Origin: an uncultured Bdellovibrionales bacterium
GTDB lineage: Bacteria; Patescibacteriota; Minisyncoccia; Moranbacterales; GWC2-37-73
Length of the DNA: 64,000 nucleotides
Direction of reading: 5' to 3'
Assembly: GCA_964609855.1 (NCBI GenBank)
Contig: CAZSTB010000005.1
Location: 1,467 to 65,466 of the forward strand
Positions 2,325 to 58,845 of this stretch are shown one piece after another. Under the pieces are notes generated by a model that saw nothing but the letters and a program-made list of their open reading frames with translations, did no database searches and was not told where the DNA came from. The translations under genes and the position numbers were made by a program. Position 1 is the stretch's first letter; each line of letters begins with the position of its first letter.

Positions 2325-3803
2325 TTATTTCTTTAAATAATGAAAGACAGATCCAATGAAATACAATGAGCCGGTTATTGCAACCGGCTTTTTTGATTCT
2401 TTGATACTTTTGATGATCTGCGAATAATTGTTGGGAATCACTGAAAAGTTGCGAAAATTTTGAGATTCTAAAAAAGTTGCGATTTCTTTGTTGTCAACAG
2501 AGCTCCAATGATTGTCCATTCCTGAAGTTGAAAAATTAGTCAGCAAGATTTTATCAGCCAGGGGAATTATTTTCTTCAGTATATTCTTGAAATCCTTGCT
2601 TTTTTTGAAAGCGACAAGGAAAGTGAATTTTTGATTAGGATAAATTGCAGCCAAGTTAGTGGTAAAAGCCTCCATTTTTTGTGGATTGTGTGCGCCATCT
2701 ATTATTACGTTTTGTTTTTCAATCTTTCTAATTTCCATGCGACCAGGAATTGAAATGCTTTCAAGAGAAAATCTCAAAGCCTTTTCATTGATGTTGAAAT
2801 CGTCACGTTCTGATGCGATTGCTAGACAAGCCAGAGCAAGTGAGCAATTTTCAGCTTGATGTTTTCCAATGAGTCCCAATCTGACCTTTTTCAAAATTAG
2901 AGATTTTTCATTCTGAACTTGTTTCAGAATACCTCTCTGATTGCGCATTTTTATAGATCCTGAAACAAGTTCAGGATGACAATTGGGAGATTTGAAATTG
3001 AAATCAAATACTGTCTTAATCGGCGTTGAGGAGGTTGTGTAATAATTCTTTTCTTGTTTGATTGTGAAAAGCTGGGATTTTTTATCAATGCATCTTTCTT
3101 TGATAATTTTTTGTGCTCTAGCTGACTGTTGGATATTGATTGTTGTATTTTGCTTTCCTATTATTCCTGCTTTCTGCTCAGCAATTTTTGCAATTGTTTT
3201 TCCGAGAATTTCAGTGTGATCTAGTCCAATTTTTGTGATGATGCAGATCTTGTTTTTCGAGCTGACCGTGTTGGTTGCGTCCAAGGTTCCACCTAGACCA
3301 GTTTCCATGACCGCGTAGTCAATCTTTTCTTTGGCGAACATGAAAAATGCCAATCCTACATTTATTTCAAAAAATGTCGGTGCGCCATATTTGCAACTTT
3401 CCATTTTTCGTATTGCGGGAAGAATCTGATTGAAATATTTTAAAATCAATTTTTCACTCAGTAGCGCATTCGCATGTCCGCCATTTGTAGTGGCGGTTTG
3501 CGACGCGGTAGTGGAGCAAAAAACTTGCATTCTTTCTCTAATGTCAAAAATATGCGGAGAAATTGAAAGTCCAACCTTGAATCCCTGGCTTTGCAAAACA
3601 TGGCTAGTCAGGTAGGCGGTTGAACCTTTGCCGGATGTCCCTGCAATATGAATAACCTTTAGCTTGTTTTGCGGGTTGCCAAGCAGTTTCATGAAATATT
3701 TGGCTCTTTTGAGCCCAATATCTCCCATGAACAAAGCATCCCTGGTCGGGACACGGGTTTTGAGAAAATCTTCAAATTGCTGTAGACTATTTACTTTTAA
3801 CAT
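2325..3803 (-). CDS. folC: Folylpolyglutamate synthase / dihydrofolate synthase (Mur ligase family), extended (492 aa).
   Basis: HIAGTSGKGST P-loop and SPH motif typical of FolC/Mur ligases. ATG-initiated long ORF. Confidence 0.8.
   Translation of the reverse strand: MLKVNSLQQFEDFLKTRVPTRDALFMGDIGLKRAKYFMKLLGNPQNKLKVIHIAGTSGKGSTAYLTSHVLQSQGFKVGLSISPHIFDIRERMQVFCSTTASQTATTNGGHANALLSEKLILKYFNQILPAIRKMESCKYGAPTFFEINVGLAFFMFAKEKIDYAVMETGLGGTLDATNTVSSKNKICIITKIGLDHTEILGKTIAKIAEQKAGIIGKQNTTINIQQSARAQKIIKERCIDKKSQLFTIKQEKNYYTTSSTPIKTVFDFNFKSPNCHPELVSGSIKMRNQRGILKQVQNEKSLILKKVRLGLIGKHQAENCSLALACLAIASERDDFNINEKALRFSLESISIPGRMEIRKIEKQNVIIDGAHNPQKMEAFTTNLAAIYPNQKFTFLVAFKKSKDFKNILKKIIPLADKILLTNFSTSGMDNHWSSVDNKEIATFLESQNFRNFSVIPNNYSQIIKSIKESKKPVAITGSLYFIGSVFHYLKK
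2908..2982. mobile_element. MITE-like inverted-repeat element (~75 bp) inserted IN FRAME inside folC. Arms tcattctgaacttgtttcagaat / atcctgaaacaagttcaggatgacaa.
   Basis: 29-30 nt of this are identical to the tyrS-pheS intergenic element at 34561-34621 (tgtcatcctgaacttgtttcaggatctata). Encodes ...CHPELVSGSIKMRNQRGILKQVQNE... in FolC. Confidence 0.6.
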
Positions 3804-6537: not shown

Positions 6538-6719
6538 CTGGAATGCTAGCTTTTTCCCTGCTTTATTGTTAAAATAGAATAGCAATAAGATGACGTAAAA
6601 AGCAATTTTGAATTTTATAATTTTGAAATATGAATGAGTTTTGAATTATTAATTTTGAAATATTAAATCATTAAGATTTGATTTAAAATTTGGAGTTCGA
6701 AATCCATCATTAACTTTAT

Positions 6720-13390: not shown

Positions 13391-13420
13391 AAGCAAGGCA
13401 TTAGCGCCTTGCTTTTTATC
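13391..13420 (+). terminator. Rho-independent terminator after hpf.
   Basis: gcaaggc-attagc-gccttgc followed by TTTTT. Confidence 0.7.
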
Positions 13421-13550
13421 GCAGCGGCATTATAGCAAAGAGAATTATGATGGCTCCAATAACTGCTAGAATGATACCAATAGGACCAAGAATTACTTCC
13501 GGATTTATCAGGCTCACAATCACTGATATAGCCCAAACGAAAACTAGAAT

Positions 13551-13698
13551 AAAAGGTATTATACCCCAGGGCAAGCCCTGGACCCTTCGAGTTCCGTGGC
13601 GCTCCGTCGCTGGGGTATTAAACCTTTTGATATCATCGCTCGCTCGGAAATGAAAGCATGCTTTCATTTCGCTCGCTTCGCTTGATAATAAAAATAAT
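13551..13698 (+). repeat. Composite intergenic repeat R1 (~150 bp, + orientation). Module A aaaaggtattataCCCCAGGGCaaGCCCTGGaccc, a variable middle, module B tttcatttcgctcgcttcgcttgataataaaaat.
   Basis: Strong alignment to the reverse complement of 42916-43052. Shares its ends with 25167-25295 and 28622-28790. Confidence 0.85.
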
Positions 13699-13806
13699 CC
13701 AAAATGCAAATTTCATGGAATTTGTTGTTTTTTAATTACCTAAATAATACATGAATTCAAGGGTTATATTCTTAACTAGTGTTTGTGTTAAGGGTGATAT
13801 GTGATA

Positions 13807-13834
13807 TTGACATTCAAATTCAAACTTGTATAAT
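13807..13834 (+). promoter_or_regulatory. Near-consensus sigma70 promoter (TTGACA-16-TATAAT).
   Basis: ttgacattcaaattcaaacttgtataat. Confidence 0.6.
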
Positions 13835-13839
13835 TGCAA

Positions 13840-13988
13840 TATGCTTACAAACAAATCAAATCAAAATATTTATACATTTATGTATTTTTGGTTTATCGGC
13901 CGCCAAGGTCGGTTTGTTTTTGCGAATAATGCATAAGAGTTTATACATTGTTCGAATTGATAAGCCGACCTTGAAGGGTCGGTTTTTT
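13840..13988 (+). ncRNA. Candidate small RNA (~150 nt) between the consensus promoter and an intrinsic terminator.
   Basis: Promoter at 13807-13834. Terminator ccgacc-ttgaag-ggtcgg plus TTTTTT at 13965-13988, and a related weaker hairpin at about 13905-13935. No SD-associated ORF. Confidence 0.35.
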
Positions 13989-14049
13989 GTTTTAATTTAG
14001 TTTCTTAACATCACTGTCCCAGTGTGGACAAAAAAAGGAGAAAATATTC

Positions 14050-14253
14050 ATGAAAAGAGGATACTTTGTGGAGTCTTCCAATGTAGGCATGAAGGGTCGA
14101 GAGCAGGCAATGAATGAGCAAATAATGGAGGGGCAAACTGGAATAATGCAGTATGCTTCAATAAATAACAATGATTTTGTTGCAGAATTCTGCCCCTATG
14201 ATATGGGTTCAATTGCACTGAGGAGAATGCGCTTGAATAGATCCAGACGCTAG
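14050..14253 (+). CDS. Small hypothetical protein (67 aa) with a strong SD.
   Basis: AAGGAG about 10 nt before the ATG. First gene of a two-gene unit that ends at the terminator at 14509. Confidence 0.45.
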   Translation: MKRGYFVESSNVGMKGREQAMNEQIMEGQTGIMQYASINNNDFVAEFCPYDMGSIALRRMRLNRSRR

Positions 14254-14300
14254 CTTATTCATTGTCAAAGATAAGAAAACATTGAAAAAAGAGGTGAGCT

Positions 14301-14489
14301 ATGAATGCTGGGTATTCAGTGGAAGACACCCTTGAAGATCCCTATGATAAATTGCAAGCAGCTATTGAGCTGAAAAAAGAACTGCAAAGAGAAATTGCCA
14401 TTAATCATGATCCAAAATTGAAAGAACAATTTTTTAAGCAGGAAATGTTGGTAACTAGTTTAAAAAAGTCACTGCAATTGTGTTGGTAA
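14301..14489 (+). CDS. Small hypothetical protein (62 aa) with an SD.
   Basis: AGAGGTG 6 nt before the ATG. Followed by a strong terminator. Confidence 0.45.
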   Translation: MNAGYSVEDTLEDPYDKLQAAIELKKELQREIAINHDPKLKEQFFKQEMLVTSLKKSLQLCW

Positions 14490-14508
14490 AAATTGCTTCA
14501 ACCGGACA

Positions 14509-14543
14509 GGGGAAGTTGCGTATTGCGCAGCTTCCCCTTTTTT
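14509..14543 (+). terminator. Rho-independent terminator.
   Basis: ggggaagttgcg-tat-tgcgcagcttcccc followed by TTTTTT. Confidence 0.8.
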
Positions 14544-14597
14544 CTTGTAGTGGTATAATAAGATTATCGTTCGTAGATTTTTTTGATAAAAAACAAT

Positions 14598-15170
14598 ATG
14601 AAATTTAATAAAAATACATTCGAAATAATATTCTTTGCTCGCGGAGGACAGGGTGCAAAGACCGCTTCAGAACTTGTTGCGCACGGAGCAGTTTTGGAAG
14701 GAAAATATGTGAAAGCCTTTCCTTTTTTTGGACCAGAGCGTTCTGGTGCTCCAACAAAAATGTTTTTACGTATTTCTGAAAGCGAAATTCGCACACAAGA
14801 GCCGATTATTGATCCTGATGTTGTCGTGGTGATGGATGAAACTGTTTTGGACACGGATTACGTGACTGCCAGTTTAGCCAAAAATGAGTCCTTGATTATA
14901 AATTCAAAAAATAGTCCGAATGAAATTAGAAAAAAGATTTTACATTTTGAAGGTAAGATTCATGCCATAGATGCAACTGGAATTGCGATCAGAATTACTG
15001 GAAATGCCAACCCTAACATGGTACTTGTTGGACAGCTTATTAAGATTTCAGAAATTATAAAGCTTGAAAGTGCGGCGGAAATTTTTCGTGAAGTATTCAA
15101 TGAAAAATTAGGAAAAGATTTGACTGAAAAGAATATCAAAGCCATGGAGGAGGGATATGATGCGCTATAA
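14598..15170 (+). CDS. porG: Pyruvate/2-oxoacid:ferredoxin oxidoreductase gamma subunit.
   Basis: FFARGGQGAKTA signature. Operon context with delta, alpha and beta subunits. Confidence 0.8.
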   Translation: MKFNKNTFEIIFFARGGQGAKTASELVAHGAVLEGKYVKAFPFFGPERSGAPTKMFLRISESEIRTQEPIIDPDVVVVMDETVLDTDYVTASLAKNESLIINSKNSPNEIRKKILHFEGKIHAIDATGIAIRITGNANPNMVLVGQLIKISEIIKLESAAEIFREVFNEKLGKDLTEKNIKAMEEGYDAL

Positions 15171-15296
15171 GAAAATAATTTAGAATTCGGAATTTCGAAT
15201 AATATCTGAATTACATAACGTTTTAAAAATTCAAAATTTAATCATTAGAAATTCATTCAAAATTCAAAATTATAAATTCAAAATTTGTTAAATATT

Positions 15297-17191: not shown

Positions 17192-17283
17192 TTTTATTTT
17201 TTAATTTACAATGATCAATTTACAATTTACAATTAAATATCAATTACACAATGTAAAATGAAAATTTTGAAAATTCAATGAAA

Positions 17284-17307
17284 ATTGAAAATTGTGAATT
17301 GAAAATT
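17284..17307 (+). promoter_or_regulatory. Conserved 24-mer ATTGAAAATTGTGAATTGAAAATT directly upstream of porB. Identical copy at 48808-48831, related copy near 58807-58840.
   Basis: Exact 24-nt identity between two unlinked intergenic loci. Confidence 0.5.
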
Positions 17308-17315
17308 ATTTAAAT

Positions 17316-18584: not shown

Positions 18585-18657
18585 GCCACCTTAGCTCAGT
18601 TGGTAGAGCGGCGCACTCGTAACGCGCAGGCCATCGGTTCAATCCCGGTAGGTGGCT
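18585..18657 (+). tRNA. tRNA-Thr (anticodon CGT); CCA not encoded.
   Basis: Cloverleaf: acceptor GCCACCT/AGGTGGC, D-arm TAGCTCAGTTGGTAGAGC, anticodon loop CTCGTAA, T-loop TTCAATC. One A-C mismatch at the base of the anticodon stem. Confidence 0.75.
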
Positions 18658-24652: not shown

Positions 24653-25168
24653 ATGAACACCAAAAAGAAAACCTTAAAAAAAGTGGAGGCACCAAAGAAA
24701 AAAGCAGTTAAAAAGCCTGTGAAAACTTTGGCGATTATGAAGGGGACGAAAAAAGCTGAAAAAAAAGCTTCGGTAATCATTGTAAAAAAAACAGCAAGAA
24801 AAGCAGCAGTTAAAAAAACCAAGACAGTGGCTGCCTCAAAATTTTCACACAAAGAAGAGAAATGTTGTCTCAATCGAGAACCGGCGATTAAGCGATTTTT
24901 TTACATGACACTTGCAATTATAATCGGCCTACTTTTAGGAATAGCTGTCAATCTTTTTGTAGAATTAGCGTATTTGCAGCAAAAGATGATAGACGGCGAA
25001 GCGGTCAGGGTATACACATTGTTTGGAATGAACAGTTATCTGCCCATTGTTTCTCAGATATTTTTCTTACTTTCCGGCTTAATTTTTGGAGTTTGGCTTG
25101 GGATGTGGGGATGGCGGATGGTGTACATTGAACGTAGACACAGAATGTTCAAACATTGCTGCAAATAA
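24653..25168 (+). CDS. Hypothetical protein: lysine/alanine-rich histone-H1-like N-terminus fused to a 2-TM membrane anchor.
   Basis: About 70 aa of KKxxKKAxKK repeats followed by two hydrophobic helices. Confidence 0.5.
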   Translation: MNTKKKTLKKVEAPKKKAVKKPVKTLAIMKGTKKAEKKASVIIVKKTARKAAVKKTKTVAASKFSHKEEKCCLNREPAIKRFFYMTLAIIIGLLLGIAVNLFVELAYLQQKMIDGEAVRVYTLFGMNSYLPIVSQIFFLLSGLIFGVWLGMWGWRMVYIERRHRMFKHCCK

Positions 25169-25295
25169 AAGGTATTAACCCCGGGGCAAGCCCTGACCCT
25201 CGCATGTAACGAGATACCTGCCTGCCCTGTCTACCGATAGGCAGGCGGTAGGTAGTAAAACGAAAATTCATTTTCGCTTCGCTTGATAATAAAAA
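25167..25295 (+). repeat. Composite intergenic repeat R2 (+ orientation): module A, module C (tacctgcctgccctgtctaccgataggcaggcggtagg), module B.
   Basis: Ends match R1 and R3. The middle matches the reverse complement of 28700-28760. Confidence 0.8.
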
Positions 25296-25302
25296 TCACC
25301 AA

Positions 25303-25328
25303 CAGCTCCTAGTGAGCTGTTTTTTTTG
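25303..25328 (+). terminator. Rho-independent terminator.
   Basis: cagctc-ctagt-gagctg followed by T9. Confidence 0.8.
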
Positions 25329-28383: not shown

Positions 28384-28617
28384 ATGATTTATACCGGAGC
28401 GGAATATTCTTTAGAAAATATTTACCATCAATTATTGCAGCAAGCAAGATATGAAGATATCCGCACATATGAGCAATATAAGGAACTTGTGGATTTATTT
28501 ATTGAAGAAAAAAAGAGTTATGGATTCTTTTCAGAAGATGAGGATCTTGTTCAGATCAAACATTCATTGGAACTCCGCTGGCCAGAAATAGAGGCAAATT
28601 TAGCAGCAAAGCGGTAA
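28384..28617 (+). CDS. Hypothetical small protein (77 aa).
   Basis: ORF only. Confidence 0.3.
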   Translation: MIYTGAEYSLENIYHQLLQQARYEDIRTYEQYKELVDLFIEEKKSYGFFSEDEDLVQIKHSLELRWPEIEANLAAKR

Positions 28618-28621
28618 GTGA

Positions 28622-28790
28622 GTTGTAATATTTAATAAGCTCGCAGCTCCGGACGCAAATTTTTCTCGGCATGATTATTTTATTGTCAGTGAAGTCGAGC
28701 AAAGCAAAATGAATTTTTGTTTCTTGCCTACCGCCAGCCTATCCGTGACGGGGCAGGTAGCCATAAGTGAGCTATGACATCAAATAGTAT
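28622..28790 (-). repeat. Composite intergenic repeat R4 (- orientation, more degenerate): module B' (catgattattttattgtcagtgaa...gcaaagcaaaatgaattttt) plus module C'. Module A is degenerate.
   Basis: Reverse complement aligns to R2 (ctgccccgtcacggataggctggcggtagg; gaaaaattcattttgctttgctcgac). Confidence 0.65.
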
Positions 28791-28889
28791 TTATTTGCAT
28801 TTTGAATTTTTTTACGTTAGTATCAATATATATTTTAAAAAATGTTCTTTCGCAATGCGACTATAAATTCAAATCATAGGAGGTGTAGT

Positions 28890-34560: not shown

Positions 34561-34621
34561 TGTCATCCTGAACTTGTTTCAGGATCTATATTTTAGATTC
34601 CGGATTAAGTCCGGAATGACA
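34561..34621. mobile_element. MITE-like element with TGTCATCC...GGAATGACA termini and two arm hairpins (atcctgaa/ttcaggat; ttccgga/tccggaa), between tyrS and pheS.
   Basis: Termini are inverted repeats. The left arm is identical over 29 nt to the element inside folC. Related termini at 52815-52888 and 60051-60121. Confidence 0.6.
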
Positions 34622-42885: not shown

Positions 42886-42915
42886 TCTATCAGATAAACT
42901 CCTAGTAATGGGAGT

Positions 42916-43052
42916 TTATTATCAAGCGAAGCGAGCGAAATGAAAAATTAATATTTTCCATTTCCGAGCAAGTGTAGATATCAAAAGGTATAATACCTCG
43001 CAGCTCTGCCCCAAAGGGTCCAGGGCTCTGCCCTGGGGTATGATACCTTTTA
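42916..43052 (-). repeat. Composite intergenic repeat R3 (- orientation), closest relative of R1.
   Basis: Reverse complement: aaaggtatcataccccagggcagagccctggaccc...ggtattataccttttgatatc...tttcatttcgctcgcttcgcttgataataaa. Confidence 0.85.
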
Positions 43053-43076
43053 TTTTTTTGAATAAATTTATGCTTA

Positions 43077-48717: not shown

Positions 48718-48807
48718 AAGGCTCAAAATAACCAATTTTCAATAATCAATTCTCAATTCACAATGAATTTTCAATTTTCAATTTTTTAATTGCAAATTCT
48801 GGTTTTA

Positions 48808-48831
48808 TTGAAAATTGTGAATTGAAAATTG
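48808..48831 (+). promoter_or_regulatory. Second copy of the conserved 24-mer ATTGAAAATTGTGAATTGAAAATT, about 25 bp upstream of the rplU promoter.
   Basis: Identical to 17284-17307. Confidence 0.5.
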
Positions 48832-48857
48832 GAAATTCTGGCAAAATGCCTTTGTAC

Positions 48858-53870: not shown

Positions 53871-55301
53871 TTAGGAAGCTGGCTTTATCTTTGGTCCTTC
53901 GCTTGTATCTTCGACCACGAAGCCATGTTTTTCAATAAGTGCTCTGAGTTCGTCTGATTTTTTGAAATCTTTTTGATCTCTGGCAGCTTCGCGTTTTTGC
54001 ATGAGTTCTTTCACTTCTGTAGGAATTTCTGCTTGACCCTGTAGGATGAGTCCAAAGACGCTATTCATTCTGTTCCAGAGCGACAAAATTTTCTTGGCAT
54101 CCTCGGAGCTGATGTCCTCATTGGTTTGGCGAATATTGAATTCGGTTATAAGTTCATAGAGTTGACTTAATGCAAGCGGAGTGTTGAGGTCATCATCTAA
54201 GGCGCTCTCAAATTTTTCCTTGTGAGATGTGATTTCAAATTCTTTGGCGCTTGGTTTTTCTGATTTGGCTAAAATTTCTAAATTCAAAATGAAATCATTA
54301 ATTTTTTGCAAGTTCTTATGAGCTTGCATTATGGCATCCCAAGAAAAATCCATTTGAGAACGGTAATGCGATGAAAGGAATAGGACCCTCAGATCCATCG
54401 GTGAAAAACCTTTCTCAATGATGTCTTCAAGTTTGTATAAATTACCCTTGGATTTGCTCATTTTTTCTCCATTCATCAAGAGATGGCGACCATGAATCCA
54501 GAATCGGACATATTTTTTTCCGGTGAAGCATTCAGTTTGTGCAATTTCTGCTTCATGATGCGGGAAGATGTTATCTTCGCCACCAGTGTGAATATCAATG
54601 GTTGAACCGAGGTATTCCGTGCTCATGGCGCTGCATTCAATATGCCAGCCTGGATAACCGATTGACCATGGAGAATGCCATTTTAAAAGATGGGCTTCAG
54701 GCGCTTTGAGCCAAAGTGCGAAATCCCAGGGATTTCTTTTGTCTGGATGTTCTTCGAGGCGAGCTCCTACTTTTAAATTTTCCAGCGTATTGCCAGAAAG
54801 TTTTCCGTATTCTTCAAATTTGGTCACATCAAAAAATACATTGCCATTCACTTCGTAAGCGTAGCCTTTTTCAATCAGTCCTTCGATTATTTTAATCATT
54901 TGCGGAACGTGCTTGGTGGCGCGTGGGAAATATTGAGCAGGCAAAATATTCAATTGTTTTTCAACATCCTTAAAATATTCCTCATAAAATCTGGCTATTT
55001 CTTCAGGGGTCTTTTTTTCAGCTAAAGCAGCCTTAAGCATCTTATCTTCGCCAGCATCACCTTGGGCAATATCATCAGCGGTAAGATGTCCGACATCGGT
55101 AATGTTTTTGATTTGTCGAACTTCATAGCCAATGTATTCCAAATAGCGTCTTACGATATCAGAAAGTAGGTAGGCACGAATATTACCAATGTGCACAAAG
55201 CCGTAAACTGTGGGACCGCAAGTATACATCCCAACCTTACCGGGATTAAGCGACTCAAATTCTTCCTTTTGTTTGGAGTAGGTATTGTAAATCTTTAACA
55301 T
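53871..55301 (-). CDS. cysS: Cysteine--tRNA ligase.
   Basis: Class I motifs: HIGN (HIGH variant), KMSKS, and zinc-binding Cys residues. Confidence 0.9.
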   Translation of the reverse strand: MLKIYNTYSKQKEEFESLNPGKVGMYTCGPTVYGFVHIGNIRAYLLSDIVRRYLEYIGYEVRQIKNITDVGHLTADDIAQGDAGEDKMLKAALAEKKTPEEIARFYEEYFKDVEKQLNILPAQYFPRATKHVPQMIKIIEGLIEKGYAYEVNGNVFFDVTKFEEYGKLSGNTLENLKVGARLEEHPDKRNPWDFALWLKAPEAHLLKWHSPWSIGYPGWHIECSAMSTEYLGSTIDIHTGGEDNIFPHHEAEIAQTECFTGKKYVRFWIHGRHLLMNGEKMSKSKGNLYKLEDIIEKGFSPMDLRVLFLSSHYRSQMDFSWDAIMQAHKNLQKINDFILNLEILAKSEKPSAKEFEITSHKEKFESALDDDLNTPLALSQLYELITEFNIRQTNEDISSEDAKKILSLWNRMNSVFGLILQGQAEIPTEVKELMQKREAARDQKDFKKSDELRALIEKHGFVVEDTSEGPKIKPAS

Positions 55302-55306
55302 AGGCG

Positions 55307-55340
55307 TTAGGAATTAGGAGTTAGGTTGTAGGGATGAGGA
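55307..55340 (+). repeat. Heptamer array TTAGGAA|TTAGGAG|TTAGGTT|GTAGGGA|TGAGGAT, left flank of the intact four-helix-bundle gene. Overlaps its last codons.
   Basis: Strict 7-bp periodicity. Inverted relative to 55727-55759. Confidence 0.7.
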
Positions 55341-56810: not shown

Positions 56811-57074
56811 ATGAAAGTGATGAAATTAGCTAAAAAAATGTTCTTATTTTTGATTAAAGTCTATCAAAAAGTTTTTTCTCTTGATCATGGGATACCTTCA
56901 TTTTTTTGGGGTGGTAGGATTTGTAGATTTCATCCATCCTGCAGTCATTATATGTATCAGGCAGTTGAAAGATTTGGAATTATTAAGGGTTTCTGGCTTG
57001 GATTGAAGAGATTTTTCAGGTGCCATCCCTGGAACGATGGGGGATATGATCCGGTGCCGAAGAGCAGGAGTTAG
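56811..57074 (+). CDS. yidD: Membrane protein insertion efficiency factor YidD.
   Basis: [18 protein letters not shown]...[14 protein letters not shown] is a near-complete YidD signature. Confidence 0.85.
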
Positions 57075-57180
57075 GTCGTAGGAAGTAGGTGGTAGGATGA
57101 AACTGGAATTATGAATTAGGCTGTGGGAATGATGTGGTAGGATTTAGGAATTAGGTGGTGGGTTGTGGTGATTAAAATTG
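57070..57180 (+). repeat. Two direct heptamer arrays (GCAGGAG|TTAGGTC|GTAGGAA|GTAGGTG|GTAGGAT ... TAGGATT|TAGGAAT|TAGGTGG|TGGGTTG|TGGTGAT).
   Basis: 7-bp periodic TAGG repeats in the same orientation. No cargo ORF between them. Confidence 0.55.
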
Positions 57181-57964: not shown

Positions 57965-58708
57965 ATGAACGAAAGACAAGAAAAAATTTTAGCAGCTGTC
58001 GTTGAAGAATATACTCAAACGGCTGTTCCTGTTGGGAGTCAGATTCTGGCTGGTAAATATGGCTTTCAGGTAAGCTCGGCAACCATCAGAAATGACATGA
58101 TGACTCTTGAGGAGGAGGGATATTTATATCAGCCACATATTAGTGCTGGTAGAATTCCAACTGATAATGGTTACAGATATTTTGTGGAAGAGGTCATGAA
58201 AGATAAGGTGCTTTCAAAAGAGGAACAGCAGATAATGCAAAAAGAATTTTTAAAATTAAAGGCTCAAAATAAACGACTCACGAGAACAACAGCGAAACTA
58301 CTTTCCCATGTTAGCGGAAATTTTGCTATCAGTAGTTTGCAGGAAAACGATGAATTTGCGGAATTTGGAATGCGCGAACTTATGGAGGCTCCGGAATTCC
58401 AAGAAATGGATGAAATGTGCAGGGTAGTTGAAATGCTGGATTATATCGATGAGAAATTTGACCAGCTGACAAAGGGTATTAAGGAGGGAGAAACGAGGAT
58501 ATTCATTGGGAAAGAAAATCCTATCCATCCAACTGCCAATTGTTCTATGATTGTTTCCCCCTATAGGTTGAAAAACGGCGAGAAAGGAATCCTGGCATTA
58601 ATCGGACCAAAAAGAATGAAGTATGCTCAGAACAAGTCTATGATTGATTATGTAAAAAAGCTCCTGGGAGCATCAATGGTGATAATAGTAATGATAAATA
58701 TCGTTTAA
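57965..58708 (+). CDS. hrcA: Heat-inducible transcription repressor HrcA (short form).
   Basis: N-terminal winged HTH (ILAAVVEEYTQTAVPVGSQILA). CIRCE site upstream. grpE-dnaK downstream. Confidence 0.8.
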   Translation: MNERQEKILAAVVEEYTQTAVPVGSQILAGKYGFQVSSATIRNDMMTLEEEGYLYQPHISAGRIPTDNGYRYFVEEVMKDKVLSKEEQQIMQKEFLKLKAQNKRLTRTTAKLLSHVSGNFAISSLQENDEFAEFGMRELMEAPEFQEMDEMCRVVEMLDYIDEKFDQLTKGIKEGETRIFIGKENPIHPTANCSMIVSPYRLKNGEKGILALIGPKRMKYAQNKSMIDYVKKLLGASMVIIVMINIV

Positions 58709-58845
58709 ATAATTTTCAATGCTCAATTCTCAATTTTCATTGAATTTTCAAATCATAATTATTGATAATGCATCTGTTTAAGAACTTTTTCATTGTAAAT
58801 TGATTGTGAATTGAAAACTGTAAATTGAAAATTGATATTAAATTT

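Follow-up and report, generated by a model that had tools for sequence, protein, structure and literature searches.

The 64-kb stretch analysed here (contig CAZSTB010000005.1; hereafter the window, with positions counted from its first base) has a G+C content of 32-42%, a GC skew that is positive throughout and nearly all of its genes on the + strand. The genes identified include murB, hpf, ftsW, murG, murC, trmD, recQ, a NUDIX gene and genes for a P-type ATPase and a TraD-like ATPase; secDF was assigned from Pfam matches on a contig of the same strain (L039; L numbers designate loci outside the window, which were taken as stretches of 8-20 kb). Since RecQ homologs with 70-78% identity carry the name Candidatus Moranbacteria, we assign the host of the window to this group. 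Gene starts have no Shine-Dalgarno sequence, and A-rich runs such as AATAAAAATATG lie upstream. Dispersed among these genes, at a density of approximately 1 per 16 kb, are four copies (R1 to R4, two on each strand) of an intergenic repeat built of hairpins, which is the subject of this study. Copies of this repeat are homologous, occupy orthologous intergenic sites in some genomes and not in others, and have had their modules gained, lost, amplified and interrupted. We conclude that they make up a new sequence family and, in architecture, a new variant within the bacterial class of interspersed intergenic repeats.

An earlier note on this DNA had described four full copies with common ends. 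Related sequence is present at all four places and the copies align far above chance, but the window holds two intact copies (R1 and R3), one rearranged copy (R2) and one decayed copy (R4) rather than four full ones. R1 (13548-13698, +) scores 86.8 bits with the covariance model and is spanned from 13548 to 13694 by a profile of full-length copies (E=1e-41). It consists of domain A (13551-13628), an AAAAGGT...ACCTTTT stem with GC hairpins, followed by GATATC (13629-13634), a left direct repeat GCTCGCTCGG that ends at 13647, the hairpin P3 (13647-13670) and the conserved 3' end CGCTCGCTTCGCTTGATAATAAAAAT (13670-13695). R3 (42912-43054, -; 78.1 bits; profile span 43054-42914, E=8e-36) has its domain A at 43051-42983, P3 at 42964-42937 and the conserved 3' end at 42936-42915; within the window, GGTATTAWACCTTTTGATATC is confined to R1 and R3. 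Compared with shuffles, both fold well (R1 at -51.7 kcal/mol, z -4.45; R3 at -47.7 kcal/mol, z -4.73), and the CCAGGGC/GCCCTGG hairpin reported previously is real, as are the other stems.

R2 (25164-25298, +; profile span 25164-25295, E=1.5e-11) folds weakly better than shuffles (z -2.55). It retains the 5' half of domain A and lacks the 3' half and the left GCTCGCTCGG. A GC-rich hairpin, CCTGCCTGCCC...GGCAGGCGG (25217-25245), occupies the place of the remaining domain A, GATATC and the left direct repeat, and the conserved 3' end (25274-25293) comes after half of P3. The intrinsic terminator that had been seen after R2 is present just 3' of the copy (25301-25321, +), outside the repeat, and is conserved in L028, a relative without R2. 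For R4, a short-form copy on the - strand, the extent of 28622-28790 proposed before has to be corrected to approximately 28674-28796. Read from approximately 28796 to 28674, it has no domain A; a mini A/T 5' hairpin, AAATAAATACTATTT, is followed by GATGTCATAGCTCAC, by an R2-type GC hairpin and by a 3' end that has degenerated, ...GCTCGACTTCACTGACAATAAAATAAT. R4 was missed by the full-length profile, gave E=0.39 with a covariance model of the 3' module and does not fold better than shuffles (z +0.33). Its local alignment with R2 scores 68, a value reached by none of 1,000 shuffles (15.6±2.1). The hairpins of R2 and R4 are of the same kind, CCTGCC...GGCAGG, confirming the proposal that the middle of the repeat comes in two versions. 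The exact 20-mer TCGCTTCGCTTGATAATAAA is found at three sites, 13673 (+), 25274 (+) and 42915 (-), with none expected and none in shuffles of the window.

Two further places, at 1276-1320 and 1911-1958, had been taken for mini copies with the hairpin deleted. We rejected this: their matches to module A are no better than those of shuffles (600, 307 and 181 of 1,000 were as good for R1 and 13 of 1,000 for R2), and the best match is a single 9-mer. The two sites form the 3' ends of two paralogs in tandem (ORFs 414-1280 and 1398-1916; region 330-1958, families D5 and D9; ORF, open reading frame) that share duplicated segments of 87 nt upstream and 47 nt at the 3' side. The statement that every copy lies immediately 3' of a + strand stop codon holds for R2, which starts on the stop codon of ORF 24653-25168 (TAA at 25166-25168, within the first bases of the element). 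It holds roughly for R3, which occupies the spacer of two + genes, antisense to both, with a stop approximately 30 nt from its 3' end, and more loosely for R4, antisense between small + ORFs, the nearer of which (77 aa) ends at 28617, approximately 57 nt from the 3' end at 28674. It fails for R1, 183 nt past the end of hpf (13365). Because nearly all genes of the window are on the + strand, adjacency to stop codons says little in any case. R1 also adjoins a small - strand ORF (13416-13550), which ends in one transmembrane segment (...ILVFVWAISVIVSLINPEVILGPIGIILAVIGAIIILFAIMPLR, followed by the stop) and has its own terminator at 13416-13389. The longest reading of this ORF, 97 aa from 13709 (13416-13709), passes through R1, and R1 may therefore be an insertion at or within the 5' end of the ORF.

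A full copy measures approximately 145-155 nt (elements range from 70 to 190 nt) and has two folded domains, A and then B. In domain A, the inverted repeats AAAAGGTATTAATACC and GGTATTAAACCTTTT form an AT-rich stem of approximately 15 bp with three short GC hairpins as its cap (CCAGGGC-loop-GCCCTGG, CCC-loop-GGG and CGCRGC-loop-GCYGCG). Domain B is closed by pairing of (T)TATC with GATA(A), inside which lie TGCGCTCGCTCGG, P3 and CNCTCGCTTCGCTT, and the 3' terminus of the element is an A-rich tail, GATAATAAAAAT. P3 is flanked by the direct repeats GCTCGCTCGG and CNCTCGCTTCGC, of the GCTCGCT type, which are GC-rich and unable to pair with each other. The arms of P3 vary in sequence with pairing kept (GGAAATGAAAG/CTTTCATTTC, GGAAAAGAAGA/TCTTCTTTTC, GGAATCGAAAG/CTTTCGTTCC, GGAAATAATCCC.../...GGGATTATTTC and GTCATGCAGCGC/GCGCTGCGCGAC). 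Across 21 sequences, P3 has 10 pairs with 93% of cells paired and 7 of the 10 compensatory, and none of 500 shuffles was as good. The full-length structure of 11 Moran-type copies comprises 39 pairs (93% paired, 9 compensatory), again with 0/500 shuffles as good. The outer stem P1 changes by subfamily and stays paired (AAAAGGT/ACCTTTT, AAATTGGT/ACCAATTT, AAAGTGGC/GCCACTTT, AAAAGGC/GCCTTTT and AAATAAACCC/GGGGTATTT). The stems of the family thus covary.

Such strong, covarying secondary structure could mean that the repeat is a functional structured RNA, maintained by selection rather than by mobility, either as a cis-acting module of untranslated regions (UTRs), i.e., a leader, a stabiliser or processing site, or a platform for a protein specific to the candidate phyla radiation (CPR), or as a multi-copy small RNA. 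The single-stranded GC-rich flanks of P3 are conserved at loci where they lay outside the search pattern. In addition, orthologous copies are retained across species upstream of pilM (L019, L024) and of a gene for a 275-aa protein (L010, L023, L059), with their differences either in loops or compensatory, and at many loci a promoter-like box upstream and an ATG within 6-18 nt would make the element the whole 5' UTR. Watson-Crick covariation, however, does not discriminate between strands. P3 stems contain 11 G.U pairs versus 19 A.C mismatches, i.e., no G.U excess, and of the copies between co-directional genes, 13 are sense and 11 antisense (a further 6 are in spacers of divergent and 4 in spacers of convergent genes). 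Hence nothing indicates that selection acts on one transcribed strand, which weakens the obligate small-RNA or 3'-UTR role that had been among the candidates. Downstream genes are functionally unrelated (pilM, a permease, a transglycosylase-like gene, an AI-2E transporter, FtsW, a metallo-beta-lactamase and unknowns), and for this reason we also rejected a riboswitch-like leader of one gene class. Copies are missing from orthologous sites in close relatives, as described below. R2 differs at 7 of 132 sites from the copy at L038, in a strain with 99% identical RecQ, and thus changes at least as fast as its flanks (95% versus 98% identity); the fold of R4 is lost, and no Rfam family matches. Taken together, we consider a selected RNA an improbable explanation.

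Orientation independence and the missing RNA-strand signature could also be read as a host signal at the level of DNA, that is, a site, binding or structural, that a nucleoid, gyrase, replication or DNA-uptake factor could use in either orientation, in the way suggested for BIMEs. GC-rich words that are conserved without being palindromic, in a genome that is AT-rich, would agree with this, as would several P3 hairpins that are perfect palindromes through the loop, e.g., AAATGAAAGCATGCTTTCATTT in R1. On the other hand, a protein site on double-stranded DNA would not be expected to have covarying stems, the copies are modest in number, patchy and dispensed with at orthologous sites, and no candidate binding protein was identified. 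A DNA-level signal is thus very unlikely.

Outside the window, the exact 20-mer is found at 27 loci in species-representative genomes. Their titles read Moran-, Falkow-, Magasanik- or Parcubacteria or Patescibacteria group, with a few bins titled Gammaproteobacteria or Bdellovibrionales that are unverified; by exact look-up, one protein of such a bin proved only to be deposited under "uncultured bacterium" as well. A pattern in which the hairpin sequence was left open, GCTCGG-N18-48-CTCGCTTCGCTTGATAA, yielded 32 metagenome loci, and with profile searches of the collected loci the number of unique copies is 65 in all. Both database scans demanded the exact 3' motif; genes at these loci were called simply as longest ORFs, and the taxon labels come from the depositors. 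Copies that turned up solely as neighbours of others differ at 1-4 positions of the 3' motif (L008b, L041b, L047a, L049, L030 and L070); the family therefore extends beyond what was sampled, and part of the apparent invariance of its 3' end is due to the search. One 20-mer match, L025, was discarded as chance, being in a coding region of a Bacteriovoracaceae bin. By eye, an antisense copy is placed between apparent 5S and 23S rRNA genes in a Magasanikbacteria bin (L002, 1790-1863).

No match to the repeat was obtained by blastn against phages and plasmids, nor with the gapped pattern in viral contigs. Four related viral contigs of IMG/VR with approximately 50% G+C (L034-L037) share CCTCGCTTCGCTTGATAAT, an 18-mer directly past a terminator-like hairpin, at what is one homologous site; the remaining element is absent and the match is probably chance. 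A scan of the whole window with Rfam returned a tRNA at 18585 as the sole match above the gathering score, and R1 at permissive E-values gave chance-level matches only (sR16, 17 bits; Yfr10, 18.8 bits). Literature searches found neither a description of the element nor any report of interspersed repeats in Patescibacteria, which agrees with the previous impression that it is not a described element. A coding or insertion-sequence fragment was rejected as well: ORFs across the repeats are short and differ by copy, and the indels and stem covariation are incompatible with coding.

The family is modular, with full, short, tandem and nested-hairpin versions all present. Short forms (L010, L023, L030, L048 and others) have a minimal 5' hairpin and domain B only. 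In L020 and L026, P3 is gone together with one direct repeat, which would follow from a deletion between the GCTCGCT repeats or, alternatively, if P3 were an ancient insertion. Domain B occurs in tandem, threefold in L018 and twofold in L043 and L046. The order of modules, A then B with a variable tandem number of B, resembles that of BOX elements as an analogy of architecture, not of sequence. Additional GC-rich hairpins sit nested at several points, inside the first GC hairpin (GCCTGCCTACCGGTAGGCAGGC; L063 and L047) or the third (L041, L064, L047) and before (L004, L007) or after P3 (L043); such nested hairpins account for the two middle versions seen in the window. Even a single locus followed across metagenomes shows internal-deletion variants (L061 versus L047 and L063). 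At L005, a dense cluster of diverged inverted and direct domain B modules with a variant 3' end (...CTCGCTTCGTTTGAAGATAC) fills 2050-2390, where a spurious 194-aa ORF is opened through the repeats. The cluster adjoins a Sua5/YrdC-like gene and a type I methylase, as read from translations (the family scan gives Sua5 only).

Orthologous sites differ in whether they carry the element. L028, whose RecQ is 78% identical to that of the window, has kept the 172-aa gene, the homologous terminator and recQ, and there is no element at the position of R2. In L030 and L031, a short copy is located between the greA stop codon and its terminator; L032, where greA and recQ are likewise adjacent, has none. 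L029 has no element upstream of recQ either, and contains two other ORFs between greA and recQ. Identical copies exist at unrelated sites: on one Falkowbacteria contig, L016 and L021 are identical over 148 nt, from GGTATC to GATAATAAA, within unrelated flanks (GAATGAAT to the left and ACGATG to the right of L016; AAATTAAG and CCCGAT for L021) that show no target-site duplication. Copies often span an entire spacer, with either end 0-30 nt from a start or stop codon. Two Logan contigs of the same strain as the window (L039 and L040) begin 167 nt upstream of recQ, inside R2, indicating that the repeat breaks short-read assemblies of this genome.

The ends of the element are constant. The word before the 5' end is always AAT(A/G)AA(A/T) and the 3' end is AATAAA(AAT). 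These words show no covariation within copies and so do not represent target duplications; they belong to the element or its target. The 5' end AATAAAAGGTATTA and the 3' end CTTGATAATAAAAAT have no inverse complementarity except for the 5-nt TATCA/TGATA; terminal inverted repeats are thus absent from the element ends, and inverted repeats are found only within each domain. With neither terminal inverted repeats nor target duplications, the repeat fails the definition of a DDE-type MITE (a miniature transposable element with inverted repeats, e.g., Correia, RUP or Nezha); it shares with this class its small size, its lack of coding and its presence in one but not another of related genomes, as seen upstream of recQ. 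Concerning a possible mobilising enzyme, no transposase or recombinase family recurs in 150 neighbour ORFs within 3.5 kb of copies, among the 25 families listed, and none is present in the window ORFs scanned; likewise, there is no Y1/RAYT-like family among those listed as recurring in the neighbours. Two of the 150 neighbour ORFs are LAGLIDADG endonuclease ORFs.

The lack of terminal inverted repeats and, at L016 and L021, of a target duplication is shared with the palindrome-associated IS200/IS605 elements, and the repeat might be a miniature HUH/Y1 transposon derivative, either of that type or a REP/REPIN moved by a single-copy RAYT-like enzyme elsewhere in the genome. Also in keeping with such an origin are the subterminal hairpins near both ends, in which pairing is conserved rather than sequence, and the AAT[A/G]AA[A/T] word by the left end and AATAAA at the right end, which look like a target or cleavage motif. 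The GCTC-type direct repeats beside a hairpin presumably resemble the binding sites of HUH enzymes. IS200/IS605 elements, however, have a strong strand bias. The present element has no bias with respect to the direction of genes, and hence of replication (13:11; 2:2 in the window with its uniform skew), its left hairpin (AAAAGGT...ACCTTTT) is unrelated to the right one (GGAAATGAAA...TTTCATTTCC) and no Y1 transposase (TnpA) or TnpB family recurs among the neighbour families listed or is present in the window ORFs scanned, so that it departs from the definition of an IS200/IS605 derivative. REPs, for their part, are imperfect palindromes of 20-40 nt with a GTAG or CGTC tag, according to PMC3733652. 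The element is far larger, P3 lies between CTCGG and CNCTCGC and bears neither of these tags, and no RAYT-like gene is among the neighbour families listed, so that the definition of a REP does not fit either. Overall, we judge an HUH/Y1 origin to be quite unlikely.

Many sense copies lie between a promoter-like box and an ATG. Examples of such boxes are TTGACA-17-TATAAC approximately 20 nt upstream of L027, TGTATAAT before L010 and TGCTATAAT before L026; going by these motifs, the element would be the 5' UTR at the loci concerned. Moreover, GATAAT precedes the ATG by exactly 6 nt at each of 4 independent loci (L019/L024, L027/L057, L013 and L016), and R3 contains TTTTCA-17-GATAAT (42946-42918, -) with 9/12 consensus matches. 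One could therefore imagine a portable promoter or leaderless-start cassette in which TTTTCA of the P3 3' arm is the -35 box and GATAAT, after a 17-nt spacer whose length is invariant family-wide, the -10 box, with a start at the ATG 7 nt downstream. However, the -35-like hexamer is within a covarying stem and often unlike TTGACA, most copies have no gene in register and approximately half are antisense or followed by a terminator. An element end that abuts an ATG would yield the same spacing trivially. Furthermore, AT-rich DNA gives many promoter-like matches: their counts show no excess over shuffles in 2 of 3 scanned regions and an excess of approximately 1 standard deviation in the third. 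GATAAT and TTTTCA-17-GATAAT are consensus matches in AT-rich DNA and no evidence of function, and a promoter cassette is in our view highly improbable.

The architecture and behaviour of the family are nearest to those of ERIC and BOX. Size variants of ERIC arise via insertions and deletions at defined internal sites. Like the present element, ERIC (or IRU, approximately 127 bp) is an intergenic, noncoding imperfect palindrome of 100-150 bp that occurs in either orientation, is conserved across species, is cotranscribed with neighbouring genes, as is probable for our element, and has no known transposase; effects on mRNA stability have been reported (PMC3184786). ERIC differs, as far as a comparison by description goes, in its host phylum and in having terminal inverted repeats and TA flanks (PMC3184786), neither of which is seen here, and it is one long palindrome whereas our element has two distinct domains. 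BOX of Streptococcus pneumoniae (boxA-boxB(n)-boxC) shares the organisation in distinct subunits, one of them in variable tandem number, as well as predicted stable folds, an intergenic site and the absence of an encoded protein (PMC3184786). Its sequences and host are different, interruptions by nested GC hairpins are not known in BOX, and BOX is limited to one genus whereas the present family occurs in several Patescibacteria lineages.

REP/BIME and REPIN-RAYT systems have in common with the repeat intergenic GC-rich hairpins, mosaics and the absence of target duplication, and possible roles of REP/BIME in mRNA stability and protein binding have been described (PMC3184786); for REPINs, part of the literature proposes long vertical persistence. 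Yet REPs are 20-40 nt long, tagged, linked to RAYT and present in hundreds of copies, as opposed to an untagged unit of approximately 150 nt at 1 per 16 kb. Correia (CREE)/Neisseria REP2 elements are similar in size (100-155 bp), are often directly upstream of genes and carry promoter-like boxes, comparable to GATAAT 6 nt before an ATG in our element; our element has no counterpart to their 26-bp terminal inverted repeats, their TA duplication or their IHF site. Of the roles that the earlier note had considered, a miniature interspersed repeat is thus best supported, by presence and absence at orthologous sites, identical copies at unrelated sites, modularity and occurrence in both orientations, but the defining features of Correia-type MITEs and of REPs are lacking.

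We consider it somewhat better than an even bet that the repeats form an undescribed family of noncoding, modular hairpin elements in Patescibacteria that spread non-autonomously and are carried in UTRs; the family was probably mobile at one time. The element may have been moved in trans, as a non-autonomous unit, by an enzyme encoded elsewhere, inserting into A-rich (AATAAA-like) spacers beside start and stop codons. After insertion it would be carried passively within 5' or 3' UTRs, with occasional co-option. Its A-rich ends would restore the A-rich, Shine-Dalgarno-less start context of the genome, and GATAAT may serve as an outward -10 box at some loci, so that insertions would be tolerable or mildly useful and thus be retained.

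Several observations weigh against such non-autonomous spread. No autonomous partner was found among the neighbour and window ORFs scanned, so mobility is inferred from distribution only, and the insertion boundaries rest on the single identical pair L016/L021; the nearest relatives of the window genome are either the same strain or have a RecQ that is merely 78% identical. Searching with an exact 3' motif under-samples diversity and host range. The deep spread in Patescibacteria, the near-invariant 3' module and the divergence of copies within one genome (R1 versus R3) fit long, constrained vertical persistence equally well. An initial conservation test (0 differences at 35 conserved sites) was biased, since 20 of the sites were the exact search pattern, and was redone without those 20. 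In the L019/L024 pair, the element is 88% identical versus 71-75% for the flanks (P 0.004-0.03), and L010 and L023 differ by one in-place compensated G-C to T-A pair in P3, which hints at a function beyond that of a passive passenger. For L010/L023 as a whole, the element (90%) exceeds the upstream spacer (72%; P 0.0005) but not significantly the downstream coding sequence (87%; P 0.32), and the L007/L022 comparison is uninformative for constraint. L047 and L063 share an identical 193-nt copy next to a flank that is 91% identical, although one of the two loci is at a contig end and assembly mixing is possible. The signal of constraint at orthologous loci is no more than suggestive: constraint, or homogenisation through gene conversion, may affect some of the intact copies, whereas decay is plain in others. 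A domesticated, lineage-persistent two-domain module specific to Patescibacteria, in which a CPR-specific factor reads the conserved single-stranded GC-rich words and hairpins and which acts as Shine-Dalgarno-less leader, promoter or transcript end at many genes, appears doubtful to us.

The window contains other repeats and signals. An exact 30-mer, TGTCATCCTGAACTTGTTTCAGGATCTATA, with a CCTGAAC/GTTCAGG hairpin, occurs twice, at 2952-2981 (-) and 34561-34590 (+). One copy is in the spacer past a tyrS-like ORF and the other in frame within a - strand FolC/Mur-ligase-like ORF (2325-3803; ...NCHPELVSGSIK...), which has a second related hairpin 26 nt off, at 2905-2930. It looks like a second small palindromic repeat able to reside in coding sequence, as Rickettsia palindromic elements do. 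Many spacers carry runs of 7-8-nt words (AATTGAAA..., TTAGGAGT/TTAGGAAT..., GCTAAAAA... and TTTGTAAA...), often as inverted pairs 50-65 nt long, e.g., at 6600-6667, 15223-15287, 17249-17314, 48724-48840, 55301-55335, 57065-57172 and 58704-58834; similar runs flank the elements in L007, L020 and L066. Finally, within the gene-poor stretch of approximately 1.2 kb from R1 to the POR gamma gene, a perfect sigma-70-type promoter (TTGACA-16-TATAAT, 12/12 matches; 13807-13834, +) is followed approximately 130 nt on by a strong terminator (13962-13985). The pair (13807-13995, +) delimits a candidate small RNA of approximately 150 nt, with no significant Rfam match when 13690-14600 was scanned at permissive E-values.

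The genomes of Patescibacteria are very small and gene-dense, and in them the repeat can pass for short ORFs, as in the 97-aa reading through R1, and breaks metagenome assemblies. At the same time, it offers a marker with which to type strains and follow horizontal exchange between CPR bacteria, as well as a handle on how UTRs are built without Shine-Dalgarno sequences. If the element were a domesticated signal, it would represent a REPIN-like case of a replicator become regulator, in bacteria whose genomes are among the smallest, and should selection on the intact copies be demonstrated, the family would be a rare example of repeats kept by streamlined genomes.

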